Positions 1,488 to 8,422 of a DNA stretch of 64,000 nucleotides are shown one piece after another. The translations under genes were made by a program, and so were the position numbers. Every line of letters begins with the position of its first letter. The first letter of the stretch is position 1. The stretch comes from a virus, in the IMG/VR virus record IMGVR_UViG_3300034107_001363, positions 1 to 64,000 of that record. The stretch is one strand, 5' to 3'. A model generated the notes under the pieces. That model saw nothing but the letters and a program-made list of their open reading frames with translations, searched no databases and was not told where the DNA came from.

Positions 1488-2003
1488 TTAATCAATGCTT
1501 GAATTGCCTGAGGCCCATGCCTGCCAAATGATGATCATGTCCCGGACTTCCTGCGATTGCACGTAGAGGTTATCGAGTTCTTGCTTGGCTTTGGTGGCTT
1601 GCTTTAACGATGAATTTGATCCGTCATCAGCGAAAGTGGATGCTGCATCTAGGCAAGACAGGATCTCACTGACGATGGCGTGCATTTCCACGGCTTCGAG
1701 CCATGCTTCTCGCAGTTGGTCTCCGCAGGGTATTTTGGGGTTGGTTGTTTTCATTTGGTTGGATGGTGGGTTAAGAGCCAAAATTGCCTTGTCGAGTTTT
1801 TGGCGCTCGTCTTCAGGCATCGACTCGTAGGTGGCTCGGATGGCCTCACTGAGTGAGACAGCTTCATTGAAGCTATTTGGCATGGTGGTTTCTTTTGGTC
1901 CTTTGACACAGAACTGGTGCTTCCAAGGCCCCCTGCCAAAAAACCCACGGAAAGTTGGTTGTCCTTTCACGATGGGTTCTTGGCAGAGAGGGCAAATTTT
2001 CAT
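1488..2003 (-). CDS. Hypothetical protein (N-terminal CxxC...HxxC zinc-finger-like)
   Basis: 171-aa ORF; CPLC...HQFC. Confidence 0.6.
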   Translation of the reverse strand: MKICPLCQEPIVKGQPTFRGFFGRGPWKHQFCVKGPKETTMPNSFNEAVSLSEAIRATYESMPEDERQKLDKAILALNPPSNQMKTTNPKIPCGDQLREAWLEAVEMHAIVSEILSCLDAASTFADDGSNSSLKQATKAKQELDNLYVQSQEVRDMIIIWQAWASGNSSID

Positions 2004-2182
2004 GGCTTCAAGGTATTAACTTCGCAGGAGTCGCATCCCCAAAAAGCCTCATTGTCTTCAGTCTCGGCAATTGTTCGCCAGCGCTGCTCTAGTCCATCGA
2101 GCAGGATCTTGAATGGAATGTCCTCAAACTCCTCCCATGGGCCCTCAACGCTAAAGGCTACGTCAACAAGGAAGTTTCTCAT
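2000..2182 (-). CDS. Hypothetical protein
   Basis: 60 aa; ATGA overlaps on both sides. Confidence 0.6.
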   Translation of the reverse strand: MRNFLVDVAFSVEGPWEEFEDIPFKILLDGLEQRWRTIAETEDNEAFWGCDSCEVNTLKP

Positions 2183-3159
2183 GATGCGAGCATGGCTTCT
2201 CCGGCCTTGACGAACTTGTCCCAGTCACGCTCGAAGCCTTCCATCACGAAGCGCTTGACCTGTGCGCCGGAACCGAATTCGGACGAGTAGAGCTGGTTGC
2301 CAGCTTCGCGCGAGGACTCGTGGCTGTAGAACTCGGTGATGCCCATTGCAGCGTCCAGCCGGGTGCGGCCGGAGTTGCCCTTGCCGCCGTCGAACAGCTC
2401 GACGATGCGGGCGGTGCGCTGCTTGATCGAGTTGCTCAAGTCCTTGGCATTTCGTGTTTCCACGCCAGTTACCCAAGCACGGGCTTCGTCACGCGAGCAG
2501 GGCTCCTTGTCGGACGTTTCCATCAGGTGCTGGAAGTAGGCCGAGGTTCCGGCGAAGGTGTCGAGCGCGTCGATGACCTTCTGGATGTTGCCGTCGAGGT
2601 TGCCGGAGTGGCGGGCCTTGCCGACCACGCTGCCCGCCTGCAGGTTGGCAAGGAAGGTGTTGAGGCAGACCGTGACGATGGAGGAGTAGACCGCCGTAAT
2701 CGAGCAGCTTTTGTCGAAGCTGTCGAGCAGGGTGATGTAGTCCTTGACGATGCGGTCTCCGACCCGGAAGCCGTCGGTCACCTTGATCGAGGCGAACACC
2801 TTGCCACGGTTGTCGGTAGTGCCGGCCGAGATGACGGTGTAGGGGGTTTCGCCCAGTCCCTTTTCGAGGATGTTCCAGAAGCCCGCAATGGAGCTTGGTG
2901 TGTAGCTAGGGGCGAACGGGTCGCCGACCGGCAGGAAGTCGTCGGTCGCGATCAAACGACGCCAGTTGGGGTCTTCGATAATCTTGTCAGGGACTTCCCC
3001 GAACGGGTCGTTTGACGGGATGCGGTAGCAAAGCGGGGTGGAGACAACTTCGAACGGGGTCGAGTTTTCTTTCGTTACCTCCGGTACGATGTTGGTGAGA
3101 CGGTGCCAGGCGTTTTCTAGTCCGCTCTGGATGTCGCGATTGGTGAGTCCGTGGGCCAT
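2179..3159 (-). CDS. DUF932 (phage/plasmid TIGR03299-like) protein
   Basis: AWHRL N-terminus, DSFDKS...VCLNT, RHSG and GRT...AxxGITEF motifs. Confidence 0.8.
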   Translation of the reverse strand: MAHGLTNRDIQSGLENAWHRLTNIVPEVTKENSTPFEVVSTPLCYRIPSNDPFGEVPDKIIEDPNWRRLIATDDFLPVGDPFAPSYTPSSIAGFWNILEKGLGETPYTVISAGTTDNRGKVFASIKVTDGFRVGDRIVKDYITLLDSFDKSCSITAVYSSIVTVCLNTFLANLQAGSVVGKARHSGNLDGNIQKVIDALDTFAGTSAYFQHLMETSDKEPCSRDEARAWVTGVETRNAKDLSNSIKQRTARIVELFDGGKGNSGRTRLDAAMGITEFYSHESSREAGNQLYSSEFGSGAQVKRFVMEGFERDWDKFVKAGEAMLAS

Positions 3160-3187: not shown

Positions 3188-3499
3188 TTAGAGAAGCCGT
3201 GGATTGTTCCAAGGCTGGGATTCGACGAGAGACATGAGTCGGGCGATTTGGGATTCCAGCTCGAACAAGCGTAAGTGGATGTCGTTTTCGGACTTTTGCT
3301 GGTTGCTTTTCCAGCCGAGGTCTTGCCGGATGCGGTTATACATGCTTTCGGACATCACAAGGAATCCGGCTTCCTTGAGCGTTTTGATTCCTTCGCTGGC
3401 ACTTTGGCGTTCCAGCGTTTCTTTGTTGTCGCTCATCCATTGCATCACCTTGAAGGTGTCGGTTCGGTTGAGGCGGGTTATTTTCTTTTGTGTGTTCAT
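3188..3499 (-). CDS. Hypothetical protein (possible HTH)
   Basis: 103-aa ORF; first gene downstream of the hairpin motif at 3551. Confidence 0.65.
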   Translation of the reverse strand: MNTQKKITRLNRTDTFKVMQWMSDNKETLERQSASEGIKTLKEAGFLVMSESMYNRIRQDLGWKSNQQKSENDIHLRLFELESQIARLMSLVESQPWNNPRLL

Positions 3500-3550
3500 G
3501 GTGTTGGGGGCCCTTTGCGGGCGCGATTCTTCACAGAGAAGTCATCAAAA

Positions 3551-3634: not shown

Positions 3635-4120
3635 TCAAAGTTTGCGTGCAGCCCGCTCGTCGTCACCGACCTTGGCGTGGCATTCGTGGCACAAAATTTG
3701 GTAACCTTCAGATTCGATGTAAAGCCGTCGGATTACTTCACTCCAGTCGTATCCGAGGAAATGGTTGCCTTCTGCCCAGTCGTGCTGAAGAGGAATGACT
3801 GGTTCGGTATGGTCTGCATGAACTCCGTTTTGGGGAAATTGGCGCTGACAATGCTGGCACTGGTGTAGTTTGCACTGGCGGCCGGTTGCCGGGTTGGTGC
3901 CATGTCCTACAAAGGCTTTTTTGAGGGCTTGGTGGCGCTGTGGCCACTGGGCACGACGAAGGGCGGACATCACGAAGCTACGCATCCGTGCAAGGGTCCA
4001 TTCGCCTCCATTGAACGGACGCTCAATCCCGCTCCGGGGAGTAGGTCGCTTTTTTGCGAAATGCTTGGGCTTTTTTGTGGTAGAGGCCGGAGCCTTTTTT
4101 TTGCGTCGGAAGGGCATCAA
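3635..4120 (-). CDS. HNH endonuclease
   Basis: SALRRA..WP; CQHC...HADHTEPV...YQILCHECH zinc-HNH pattern. Confidence 0.8.
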   Translation of the reverse strand: MMPFRRKKKAPASTTKKPKHFAKKRPTPRSGIERPFNGGEWTLARMRSFVMSALRRAQWPQRHQALKKAFVGHGTNPATGRQCKLHQCQHCQRQFPQNGVHADHTEPVIPLQHDWAEGNHFLGYDWSEVIRRLYIESEGYQILCHECHAKVGDDERAARKL

Positions 4121-4364
4121 AATTGAGCTGGTTTAGCTTGTCGGCAATGGTCTGCAAATTGGCCGCTGTAAGCGGGGTAGTGTCCAAAATTGCCATTGGG
4201 TAAAACGACCATTGTCCTGATTGTTCATCAAGCCGAAACTCTCCTAGTTTCAATCCTACCATCCACACGACATCGGTGAAGCCAATGGCTTGCACCGTTG
4301 TTTCTGCAAGCTTGCCGTCAATCCATTCAACGGCTCGGTAAGTGAATATAGTGATAGGGTTCAT
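4023..4364 (-). CDS. Hypothetical protein
   Basis: 113-aa ORF directly after the ncRNA region; 3' end overlaps the HNH gene. Confidence 0.55.
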   Translation of the reverse strand: MNPITIFTYRAVEWIDGKLAETTVQAIGFTDVVWMVGLKLGEFRLDEQSGQWSFYPMAILDTTPLTAANLQTIADKLNQLNFDALPTQKKGSGLYHKKAQAFRKKATYSPERD

Positions 4365-4384
4365 GGTGTTGGTTTTGAAAAAGG

Positions 4385-4581
4385 TGAGAAAGGCCGGTCT
4401 TACCCCGGCTCTAGGCTGATCGGGCCCAAGATCTACAGCATTTGTTTGAGTTTCACGCCGCCGCGTTACTATTTGCGTCGGGAATTAACGGATGCGTTAT
4501 CCATTAACCTCACCCGATAACTGACTCAAACCTCATACTGCGACTCATCTGCGTGTCTAAGAATTTCCACGCCGCTTTCTC
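4385..4581 (-). ncRNA. tRNA-like RNA with a ~140 nt insert in place of the anticodon arm
   Basis: 7-bp acceptor GAGAAAG/CTTTCTC followed by ACC; D-like stem GCGTG/CACGC; T-like arm GCCGG-7 nt-CCGGC; internal helices. Confidence 0.6.
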
Positions 4582-4654
4582 ATTTGGAAAATGGTGGCCT
4601 GTCCGGATCGGCATTGTGAACTCAACTGGCTCTTGAATGGCGTACGGCCAGTAA

Positions 4655-4823
4655 TCAGAGGAGCTTAGTGGTGGGTTTTCAGCCGCAGACCATTGGGTCC
4701 GGTTACCGTATCCGGTGCCAGCTTGACGCTACTGGCGGTTCCACGGCTTGCGCCGTGCCTAAGGCAGCGTCTTTCCGCTGTGTCACTGCACCTGTTTTGT
4801 CAGGAGGTAGTCAGCTTCTCCTT
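4655..4823 (-). ncRNA. Multi-hairpin structured RNA segment
   Basis: Consecutive hairpins CAGCG/CGCTG, CACGGC-GCAA-GCCGTG, GCCAG/CTGGC, CCGG/CCGG and GACC/GGTC; no credible ORF. Confidence 0.5.
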
Positions 4824-4923
4824 ATGTGGCGGGAGGATTCGAACCTCCGGACGTTGATACGTTGCAGCACGCATCCCCGTTCTATCTGCATCAACCTTAG
4901 ACCTGTCTCGGTCACAACCACAT
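4824..4923 (-). ncRNA. tRNA-derived RNA with canonical D and T arms but no anticodon loop
   Basis: TG-ACCGAGACAGGTCTAAGGT D arm; GGAGG-TTCGAAT-CCTCC T arm; bulged acceptor; TTGATGC/GTATCAA stem enclosing 27 nt. Confidence 0.65.
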
Positions 4924-5021
4924 TCCAACCCCCGATCAGGTCGCTCACCGTAAGCAGTGCCCTGCGAAGGTGCCCTCACTGCGGAGGCTGGAATGAGGTG
5001 ACCGCTTACGGCGGTCAGTCG

Positions 5022-5417: not shown

Positions 5418-5966
5418 TTAGAAAGGGGCAGGTTGTTCGCCAAATTCGCTAGACTCCGGTGTTTCGCCGGTTTCGGAGTAGTGGGCATACACCTTGGCAA
5501 GCTGGAGGACCAAGGCTTGGGCGGAGAACACGTCACCACCGACACCCATCGAGGTTACCAGCGCCGTGGCGTGGGCAAGGCTGTTCTGGCGGATGATGGT
5601 AGAGTCCTTGGGAGTAACACCGGCAGGGCCGTGTTGGGCTGCAGGAGCTGCGTGAGCGGCTTGCGAGGGATCTCCCCCTGCAACTGCCAGCCCGTTCTCA
5701 CCGGACAACTGTGGAGTGCCCTTGTAGTCGCCGCGCTTGAGCGGTCCTTGCAGAGTGATCGTCTGGCCATCTTGGATGGGTAGGGAAGCGGCGGCGCCCC
5801 ACAAGGAGACGGCAATTTGGCCACTGCCGTCGGACAGCGTGATGTTGCGCATCATCTTGCCGGTAGAAGTAGCTTTGGCTGGCCACTTGGCTTGCGCCGT
5901 GACATTTTCGAGGGACATCACTTGTCCCCCGACAGGAGTGCTGATTGCTTGGAATACCGTAGGCAT
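5418..5966 (-). CDS. Single-stranded DNA-binding protein, RPA-like OB fold
   Basis: LSDGSGQIAVSLWG...GQTITL...YKGTPQLS; IIRQNSL helix; acidic tail ending in PF; adjacent to an exonuclease. Confidence 0.75.
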   Translation of the reverse strand: MPTVFQAISTPVGGQVMSLENVTAQAKWPAKATSTGKMMRNITLSDGSGQIAVSLWGAAASLPIQDGQTITLQGPLKRGDYKGTPQLSGENGLAVAGGDPSQAAHAAPAAQHGPAGVTPKDSTIIRQNSLAHATALVTSMGVGGDVFSAQALVLQLAKVYAHYSETGETPESSEFGEQPAPF

Positions 5967-7911: not shown

Positions 7912-8060
7912 GGGAATTTATCGGGATTTGCGGGCGGTGCCATTTCTTCGCAGCGGAGGCAAATGAAACACCGGACAACCCGGCCGTCGCACTCCATTTC
8001 TTCACCGCAGCACTCTGGGGGGTCGAGGTAATCCGGTGGGTTGTTTAAGTAGTCTTGCAT
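7908..8060 (-). CDS. Small Cys-rich protein (50 aa, not in the ORF track)
   Basis: MQDYLNNPPDYLDPPECCGEEMECDGRVVRCFICLRC...; overlaps both neighbours. Confidence 0.55.
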   Translation of the reverse strand: MQDYLNNPPDYLDPPECCGEEMECDGRVVRCFICLRCEEMAPPANPDKFP

Positions 8061-8422
8061 TACCAAGGGGCTGTGTCGGGGTTGAAAGCGGTGTTTTCGT
8101 CGAGACCGTCATGCGGATCAGGTCCAATTTCTTCGATGTTGCGAATGAGGCGTTGCTGGAAAGTTTCTGGTGCTGGTTTTTTGGCCCGTGGAGTGCCTCG
8201 TGGCTGCCTTGTGTTTGATTTCCTTCCTTTGCCCTTGGCCGATGCTTTGGATAGCTCCAGACGGGGTTCTAGGGCTAATGCCAGCTCGGCTGCACGATTG
8301 AACCCATCGATGTTGTCGCGGCACCATTGGACGTAGCCCGGATCTTTGAACAGCACCTTGGATAAGTGCATTCCTCGGTATTTGCCAAAGTTGAAGCAGC
8401 CGTCACCTTTGAAGGGTTTCAT
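8060..8422 (-). CDS. ExoX C-terminal-like (FGKYRG...DPGYVQW) domain protein
   Basis: FNFGKYRG..L......DPGYVQW motif. Confidence 0.65.
   Translation of the reverse strand: MKPFKGDGCFNFGKYRGMHLSKVLFKDPGYVQWCRDNIDGFNRAAELALALEPRLELSKASAKGKGRKSNTRQPRGTPRAKKPAPETFQQRLIRNIEEIGPDPHDGLDENTAFNPDTAPW

Follow-up and report, generated by a model that had tools for sequence, protein, structure and literature searches.

The window analysed here, a stretch of 64,000 nucleotides (nt), comprises the first 64 kb of the 73,295-nt IMG/VR virus record IMGVR_UViG_3300034107_001363, which CheckV rates as complete. DNA of the same phage is present in public lake-water metagenomes. The element under study is a 197-nt RNA encoded on the minus strand and read from 4581 to 4385. 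It lies in a 728-nt gap (5092-4365, minus strand) between an open reading frame (ORF) of 150 amino acids (aa), which has a weak match to DUF7303 below the cut-off, and an ORF of 113 aa, to which no Pfam family is assigned. All genes around the gap are on the minus strand. An original prediction had read the element as a tRNA scaffold that carries a structured cargo. The RNA consists of the following parts, given in its own 5' to 3' order.

4575-4581, minus strand: 5' strand of the acceptor-like stem, GAGAAAG, paired with 4392-4386 in the minimum free energy (MFE) fold and in the consensus fold
4574-4573, minus strand: linker CG of 2 nt
4551-4572, minus strand: D-like arm made of GCGTG (4572-4568), a 12-nt loop GAAATTCTTAGA and CACGC (4555-4551)
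4431-4544, minus strand: cargo domain of 114 nt at the position of the anticodon arm (helices 3-7 of the MFE fold)
4412-4428, minus strand: hairpin TGGGC-CCGATCA-GCCTA at the position of a class II variable arm (helix 8), with the stem invariant and the loop variable in the related contig L002 described below
4393-4409, minus strand: T-like arm GCCGG-GGTAAGA-CCGGC with 5 base pairs (bp) and a 7-nt loop, directly abutting the acceptor 3' strand
4383-4392, minus strand: acceptor 3' strand CTTTCTC (4392-4386) followed by the tail A-C-C, with A4385 at the discriminator position

Fold and conservation of the RNA

Folded without constraints, 4581-4385 of the minus strand reaches an MFE of -71.7 kcal/mol, and every helix named above is present. 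None of 200 dinucleotide shuffles (-55.4 +/- 4.1 kcal/mol) is as good, which corresponds to z = -4.0. The plus strand gives z = -1.5, and 17 of 200 shuffles fold as well. The 7-bp acceptor stem stacks on the 5-bp T-like stem with its 7-nt loop GGTAAGA, so that a continuous helix of 7+5 = 12 bp is formed. This stack, the 2-nt linker and the GCGTG/CACGC D-like stem had been read from the letters by the original prediction and are found in sequence and fold alike. The long inner helices that it had placed between these arms, GTTTGAG(T)/(A)CTCAAAC and TTAATGGAT/ATCCGTTAA, also form in the unconstrained MFE fold. Within the cargo, helices of 10 bp and 8 bp lead to a three-way junction with two hairpins, one built from a 5-bp base and a further 9 bp, the other from 4 bp. 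Single strands of the cargo that are conserved include the loop CGCAAATAGTAA, and no target for this loop occurs elsewhere in the window.

Protein-anchored searches returned one related contig from IMG/VR and none from metagenome contigs or genome contigs. This contig of 20 kb (L002/L003/L005, here L002) is syntenic with the window and is the sole relative found. Aligned with L002, the 197-nt RNA differs in 24 of 198 columns. The RNA region, which also includes the neighbouring modules, has an identity of 88%, whereas the flanking coding DNA of the window is 71-79% identical. Within this region and upstream of the 197-nt RNA, a run of 145 nt (4904-4760, minus strand) is identical in both phages; it covers most of one neighbouring module, B1, and about half of the next, B2. 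Because the RNA region and this identical run exceed the conservation of the flanking coding DNA, we conclude that there is selection on the RNA.

The substitutions follow the fold. In an alignment of 226 columns that includes the spacers on both sides, 28 columns differ, 14 of them in paired columns, and no change breaks pairing. All 118 cells of the 59 pairs compared with L002 are paired, with four double changes and six one-sided changes of the GC/GU and UA/UG types. When the partners are slid by 1-3 columns as a control, pairing falls to 30-42% and 0-1 double changes are seen. The shuffle control for covariation is weak with only two sequences (36/500). G-U pairs among the substitutions identify the minus strand as the RNA strand. 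All four double-compensatory changes and five of the six one-sided changes are located in cargo helices 3-7; the remaining change, GC to GU, is in the D-like stem. Since the clearest compensatory evolution falls in the cargo, the cargo is itself under selection.

A homologue search that started from the ends of the RNA had been proposed along with the scaffold reading. It is answered in part: one related contig exists and keeps pairing at 14 of 14 paired-column substitutions, while the termini, on which the proposal had centred, show no variation. A partial third copy is found on a 249-nt contig from a wastewater run that is recorded as RNA-Seq and is probably DNA. It covers 4519-4727 with six differences (about 97% identity) and diverges inside a cargo hairpin, which by eye still looks compatible with a stem. 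GenBank phages hold no match to the RNA. R1, a covariance model of the 197-nt RNA, has no match in 151 Thermoanaerobaculia genomes and finds a single copy in the phage's own record, and DNA patterns derived from the RNA return the known related contig together with chance matches only.

Several candidates were rejected. As homologues, L004 matches within coding DNA, L118-L120 have only 22-23 nt in common with the RNA and lie in bacterial contexts, and L168 and L169 lack an R1 match. A known ribozyme, a known riboswitch, GOLLD/ROOL and Y RNA were discarded for lack of an Rfam match. A coding tag inside the cargo was likewise dismissed, as a 1-nt indel in L002 shifts the sole short reading frame.

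Likeness to tRNA-Leu and the cassette array

For comparison with tRNAs, the scaffold was taken as its 5' part (acceptor and D arm) plus its 3' part (variable hairpin, T arm, acceptor and tail). The comparison tRNAs come from acidobacterial loci, mostly from one candidate-host genome (G001); the host group is a guess, and the likeness found is one to bacterial tRNA-Leu generally. The scaffold scores 26 against tRNA-Leu(TAG), and the next best of 33 tRNAs reaches 11.5. Among 1000 shuffled scaffolds (9.2 +/- 2.3) the highest score is 17. With a set of 43 tRNAs, the four best matches are all tRNA-Leu isoacceptors.

The likeness extends over both ends of the molecule. The acceptor 5' strand agrees at six of seven positions with GCGAAAG of tRNA-Leu(TAG/CAG), and relative to the full stem GCGAAAG/CTTTCGC the sole difference is pair 2:71, changed on both sides from C-G to A-U, so that six of the seven pairs are kept. 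The discriminator A73, present here, is the same in all five tRNA-Leu of G001. Encoded CC, the 2-nt linker and the hairpin at the variable position are further features of a class II tRNA-Leu. The D arm is of the type GCG-GAAUU..AGA-CGC and represents a lengthened form of the tRNA-Leu arm GCG-GAATTGGCAGA-CGC. As in a tRNA, an acceptor stem of 7 bp is stacked on a T stem of 5 bp whose loop has 7 nt, and this T stem, GCCGG/CCGGC, is identical to that of tRNA-Leu(GAG/CAA/TAA) of G001; its loop does not follow the TTCRA consensus.

The RNA differs from a class II tRNA-Leu in two respects. A branched domain of 114 nt at 4544-4431 takes the place of the anticodon stem-loop with its 5 bp and 7-nt loop containing U33. 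In addition, the consensus of the tRNA elbow, which consists of G18G19 and T54-Psi55-C56, is missing. With the D- and T-loop consensus lost, the RNA is not a decoding tRNA. The likeness of the scaffold to tRNA-Leu is plain from these scores, and it argues for a derivation of the RNA from a class II tRNA-Leu gene.

The RNA does not stand alone. In the window the order on the minus strand is a long hairpin, modules B1, B2 and B3, a spacer, the 197-nt RNA, a second spacer and the ATG at 4364.

4924-4992, minus strand: long hairpin directly 5' of B1, with a conserved base and a tip that differs between the phages
4824-4923, minus strand: module B1, tRNA-Asn-derived, with a canonical T arm GGAGGTTCGAATCCTCC, the acceptor TGTGGT/GCCACA and a short D arm
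4692-4824, minus strand: module B2, structured, ending ...CCGG-ACC-CAAT and including a hairpin that is variable between phages
4592-4691, minus strand: module B3, 100 nt, closed by GGTCTG/CAGGCC and ending ACCA
4582-4591, minus strand: upstream spacer TTTTCCAAAT, of which U4582 is position -1 of the 197-nt RNA
4372-4382, minus strand: downstream spacer TTTTTCAAAAC, with 7 nt between its end and the ATG of the gene that follows
4023-4364, minus strand: downstream gene of 113 aa, whose ATG follows the last spacer; no family assigned

B1 has a second, different parent tRNA. Its positions 4849-4825, 25 nt that comprise the T arm and the acceptor 3' strand, are identical to tRNA-Asn(GTT) of Thermoanaerobaculia genomes, and its 5' acceptor strand agrees with that tRNA in six of seven nt. 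The D and anticodon arms are rebuilt, and an enlarged arm stands at the anticodon-arm position. Among the GTDB species representatives, a 23-nt pattern from B1 occurs in six Thermoanaerobaculia/Acidobacteria genomes only, every match being in tRNA-Asn; this identity hints at the host group. ARAGORN calls B1 at relaxed thresholds only, once as tRNA-Cys(GCA) with a 20-nt insert. At the position of a small GCAA-loop hairpin of B2, L002 (about 1716-1760, plus strand) has a direct repeat instead, two copies of a 17-nt unit, so that the tip varies in an RNA which is otherwise invariant. In the closing stem of B3, a G to A and a C to T change in L002 fall on one predicted pair (GC to AU).

Between modules, a spacer motif YTTTYCARA recurs. 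It is found twice in the window region and seven times in L002, always between modules; the exact 8-mer of the spacer is not enriched across the whole window. The segments between spacers are closed by terminal stems of 8, 7, 5, 8, 7 and 8 bp in L002 (six of six) and of 8 bp in the window. Terminal stems of at least 7 bp occur in five of the six L002 segments, compared with 2.2% of 2000 length-matched random segments. Between a 7-bp stem and the spacer lies a tail of ACC, ACCA, AACC(A) or CACC; in the L002 copy of the 197-nt RNA it is ACU instead of ACC. Directly before the terminal stem, four modules have U, two have C and one has A. A search with a pattern of three spacers gave at least 113 loci; those inspected are tandem repeats in coding sequence whose period is a multiple of 3, and the loci were rejected.

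The number of cassettes differs between the two phages. The intergenic region of L002 is about 500 nt longer and contains five extra cassettes, D-H (70-117 nt; L002 2130-2650, plus strand), located between the 197-nt RNA and the gene for the 113-aa protein. Each is closed by a stem and has an ACC-type tail. Only H resembles the frame of the 197-nt RNA: R1 matches it with E = 3e-5 over spacer, terminal stem and T-like hairpin, and its interior is different. In the comparison with 43 tRNAs no clear parent emerged for B3, D, E, F or G. Further downstream, at 3445-3519 (plus strand), L002 has a genuine tRNA-Arg(TCT), without encoded CCA and without an adjoining spacer motif. The window has no tRNA there, and the 73-kb record contains no intact tRNA gene anywhere (no match to RF00005). 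Contigs of 348 and 922 nt from two lake runs match the window at 4344-4379 only (36 nt, five differences) and continue into unrelated, A+T-richer sequence with another spacer-like motif; they may stem from a more distant phage with a similar junction.

The surrounding genes give few functional clues. The 113-aa protein downstream of the array yields a poor structure model, with a predicted local distance difference test (pLDDT) score of 47. Among the context proteins, Pfam found four families in eight proteins, then none in ten and one in a further ten, and PHROGs had matches for two of ten, the function of both being unknown. The remaining phage proteins match no family of known function in the Pfam and PHROGs libraries searched. 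The individual assignments are as follows.

2179-3159, minus strand: DUF932 protein (E = 1e-16), the sole family above the cut-off among the first eight proteins
8060-8422, minus strand: protein with an ExoX-like C-terminal motif (E = 1.6e-8)
3635-4120 and 5418-5966, minus strand: an HNH endonuclease hint and an OB-fold hint, both below the cut-off

The starts at 4364 and 3499 (minus strand) have the context CCAACACCATGAAC in common. They lack a Shine-Dalgarno sequence, as do the other starts inspected.

Interpretation and alternatives

We consider it fairly probable that the element arose from a class II tRNA-Leu gene and is now a non-coding RNA with a cargo of 114 nt, forming one cassette of a polycistronic array that the host processes. 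The structural half of the scaffold reading is supported, with ends of the tRNA-Leu type, a cargo at the anticodon-arm position and neighbours with ACC(A) tails. The other half, in which the tRNA frame serves as a handle for processing and stability, is the role that this architecture suggests. Transcription of the RNA, its processing sites and its stability are predicted here from sequence features.

We propose that the array is transcribed as a single precursor, because neither terminator-like nor sigma-70-like sites were found on the minus strand between 3900 and 5700, the spacer included. The tRNA maturation machinery of the host would then cut this precursor into stable RNAs. RNase P would cleave at the U4582/G4581 junction, directed there by the 12-bp stack of acceptor and T stem and by the A-C-C tail. 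In the single-stranded spacer an endonuclease cut followed by trimming would take place, and the CCA-adding enzyme would complete the 3' end. Once released, the RNA would be protected by its tRNA frame, with the cargo carrying the function. Excision of the last cassette would also mean that the mRNA downstream starts with a very short leader. The accessible part of PMC10731613 describes a preference of RNase P for a 12-bp acceptor/T stack, for U(-1)/G(+1) and for a 3' RCC as pairing partner of its L15 loop. By sequence criteria, all three features are present, at 4582/4581 and in 4409-4383.

A number of observations weigh against this interpretation. U(-1) is able to pair with A73, which would extend the stem to 8 bp, and pairing of this type is said in the same part of PMC10731613 to slow RNase P. 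The T loop GGTAAGA lacks T54-Psi55-C56 and the D loop lacks G18G19; since these nucleotides are lost, the elbow contacted by RNase P and other tRNA enzymes may not form. The terminal stem, the T-like arm and the variable-arm hairpin (in its stem) are identical in both copies and carry no covariation signal. The known copies amount to two full ones and one partial one. ARAGORN predicts no gene in the window, and none at the RNA with introns allowed and thresholds lowered to 65%; Rfam has nothing at the RNA at the gathering threshold or at E <= 10. Both miss the RNA because the anticodon stem-loop, G18G19 and the TTCRA loop are missing. Finally, the spacer is conserved far beyond the needs of an unstructured linker, RNase P does not explain it, and the motif is absent beside the tRNA-Arg of L002 and beside the 38 tRNAs of G001. 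As the spacer is conserved and yet absent beside genuine tRNAs, another sequence-specific factor may do the cutting. The spacer may be the site of such a factor, or it may have a role in the gain and loss of cassettes by recombination.

The RNA could alternatively be a mimic that works through the acceptor end of its tRNA frame. It would then be charged with leucine or, as a decoy or sponge, bind host enzymes or defence toxins whose targets are tRNA acceptor ends or elbows, and the cargo would be secondary. We regard this as unlikely. Leucyl-tRNA synthetase is not known to read the anticodon, and an acceptor of the tRNA-Leu type with A73 and a CC tail is what such a mimic would offer. The array imitates at least two tRNAs, Leu and Asn, and the cassette number differs between close relatives, as expected for genes in an arms race. 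Phage tRNAs that counter tRNA-targeting defences are published, according to the accessible parts of PMC11555353 and PMC11559606. However, the D- and T-loop consensus is lost, and the discriminator of B1 is U rather than G and is not followed by CCA. The compensatory changes are clearest in the cargo, so that the cargo appears to be selected for its own sake, and Pfam and PHROGs recognise no defence or counter-defence gene among the neighbouring proteins.

A broader version of this idea takes the whole array as a phage toolkit of re-purposed tRNAs, in which the acceptor/T halves of particular host tRNAs (Leu, Asn and others) are kept and the anticodon halves are rebuilt. Each cassette would then still be treated like its parent tRNA and might even be charged or targeted in the same way. 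The 197-nt RNA would be a leucine-accepting RNA or a decoy for host defence enzymes that act on tRNA acceptor ends, and the spacer would be the site of a dedicated factor for processing or exchanging cassettes. This, too, we judge to be improbable. If it were true, a leucine-accepting cargo RNA would constitute the second natural class that combines a tRNA with a cargo, after transfer-messenger RNA (tmRNA).

Decay of a former phage tRNA array into functionless pseudogenes would account for two modules that are visibly derived from tRNAs yet unable to decode, and for a 73-kb record devoid of intact tRNAs when the relative keeps a tRNA-Arg nearby. Such a history appears very doubtful in the light of the comparison with L002: substitutions are filtered for pairing (14 of 14 compatible, four double changes), the region including the 145-nt identical run is more conserved than the coding DNA that flanks it, and a well-folded insert of 114 nt is not a product of decay.

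The position of the RNA directly upstream of the 113-aa gene and on the same strand raises the question of a cis-acting leader, that is a riboswitch or attenuator of this gene. The last spacer ends 7 nt before the ATG with no Shine-Dalgarno sequence visible, and a pyrimidine-rich run follows the T-like hairpin. In L002, however, some 530 nt with five cassettes separate the copy of the RNA from this gene, and it is these intervening cassettes that make a leader function very unlikely. Moreover, the terminal stem closes the RNA on itself and leaves the spacer free, a terminator-like site on the minus strand is lacking, and no Rfam riboswitch matches at E <= 10.

Remnants of phage attachment sites (attP) matching the 3' ends of host tRNAs are the least probable explanation and hardly credible: the exact match of 25 nt to the 3' portion of a bacterial tRNA-Asn gene resembles what attP cores show, but it could concern B1 only, the 5' acceptor strand and D arm are present as well, the tRNA-Leu match of the 197-nt RNA is diverged and includes the 5' half, and the complete record encodes neither a tyrosine integrase (PF00589) nor a serine recombinase (PF00239).

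We therefore retain the host-processed cassette with a tRNA-Leu frame as the preferred interpretation. This RNA stands out in that its parent tRNA can be named, the site of the insert is precisely defined as the anticodon arm, and selection acts on the structure of the cargo. It clearly illustrates a way in which tRNA genes can give rise to new non-coding RNAs. With stem-closed cassettes that are punctuated by spacers and differ in number between two close relatives, the array points to modularity as a means for a phage to carry several such RNAs. If these are processed as predicted, frame and spacer could be reused for the expression of RNAs in bacteria; should they be tRNA mimics, they would be relevant to the conflict of phages with defences that target tRNAs. 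Drawn from two genomes of uncultured lake phages, the finding is a lead rather than an established class.

Relation to known RNAs

Within the sets of terms used, literature searches gave no account of phage arrays in which chimeric RNAs derived from tRNAs are punctuated by a spacer. Among known RNAs, tmRNA is the one to which the topology had first been likened. In this respect the likeness holds, as both have an acceptor/T-arm domain with a large insert between the D region and the T arm. Membership of the tmRNA class is contradicted by every test that was run. Pair 3:70 is G-C, and neither the G3-U70 pair nor the GGGG 5' end is present, as the original prediction had already pointed out. The terminal stem is GAGAAAG/CTTTCTC, and the parent is of the Leu type and not of the Ala type. 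Neither ARAGORN nor Rfam found a tmRNA in the window.

The genomic setting is closest to that of the species 1 and 2 RNAs of phage T4, which to our knowledge have long been known and have no known function. According to the annotation of AF158101, these products of rnaC and rnaD are stable RNAs that are not tRNAs, encoded within the tRNA cluster of the phage. A canonical T arm adjoins the 3' end of rnaC, and the last bases of rnaD are CACC, with an A after them. There is no homology between the two systems, the best R1 match in the T4 cluster having E = 3.8 and lying on the wrong strand. T4 lacks a conserved spacer between the genes, the MFE fold of rnaD has no closing terminal stem, and a parent tRNA (Leu) is identifiable for the 197-nt RNA, unlike for the T4 RNAs. 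One string of 12 nt, CCAAATGAGAAA, is common to the junction of tRNA-Arg and rnaD in T4 (L121 3168-3180, minus strand) and to 4575-4586 of the window (minus strand), where spacer and 5' end meet; chance is a possible explanation.

In eukaryotes, tRNA-like handles set the ends of other RNAs. The tRNA-miRNA-encoded RNAs (TMERs) of murid gammaherpesvirus 68, which are cut by tRNase Z, and the t-elements of plant mitochondria are the cases considered here. In the parts of the sources at hand (PMC4838037 for TMERs, PMC1920247 for t-elements), the cargo lies beside the tRNA-like unit, and not inside it as in the phage RNA. The position of the last spacer just before the next ATG also recalls tRNA punctuation and the t-elements, as far as these are described in the accessible part of PMC1920247.

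The 197-nt RNA differs from engineered tRNA scaffolds in that it is natural, uses a class II Leu frame with altered loops and belongs to a spacer-punctuated array. Engineered scaffolds hold their cargo in the anticodon arm, and their products are processed and stabilised by the cell. The principle of a cargo RNA within a tRNA frame for expression in vivo, as outlined in the accessible parts of PMC3753655 and PMC3401473, is the same in both. By this analogy, the phage RNA resembles a naturally evolved equivalent of the tRNA scaffolds built in the laboratory.

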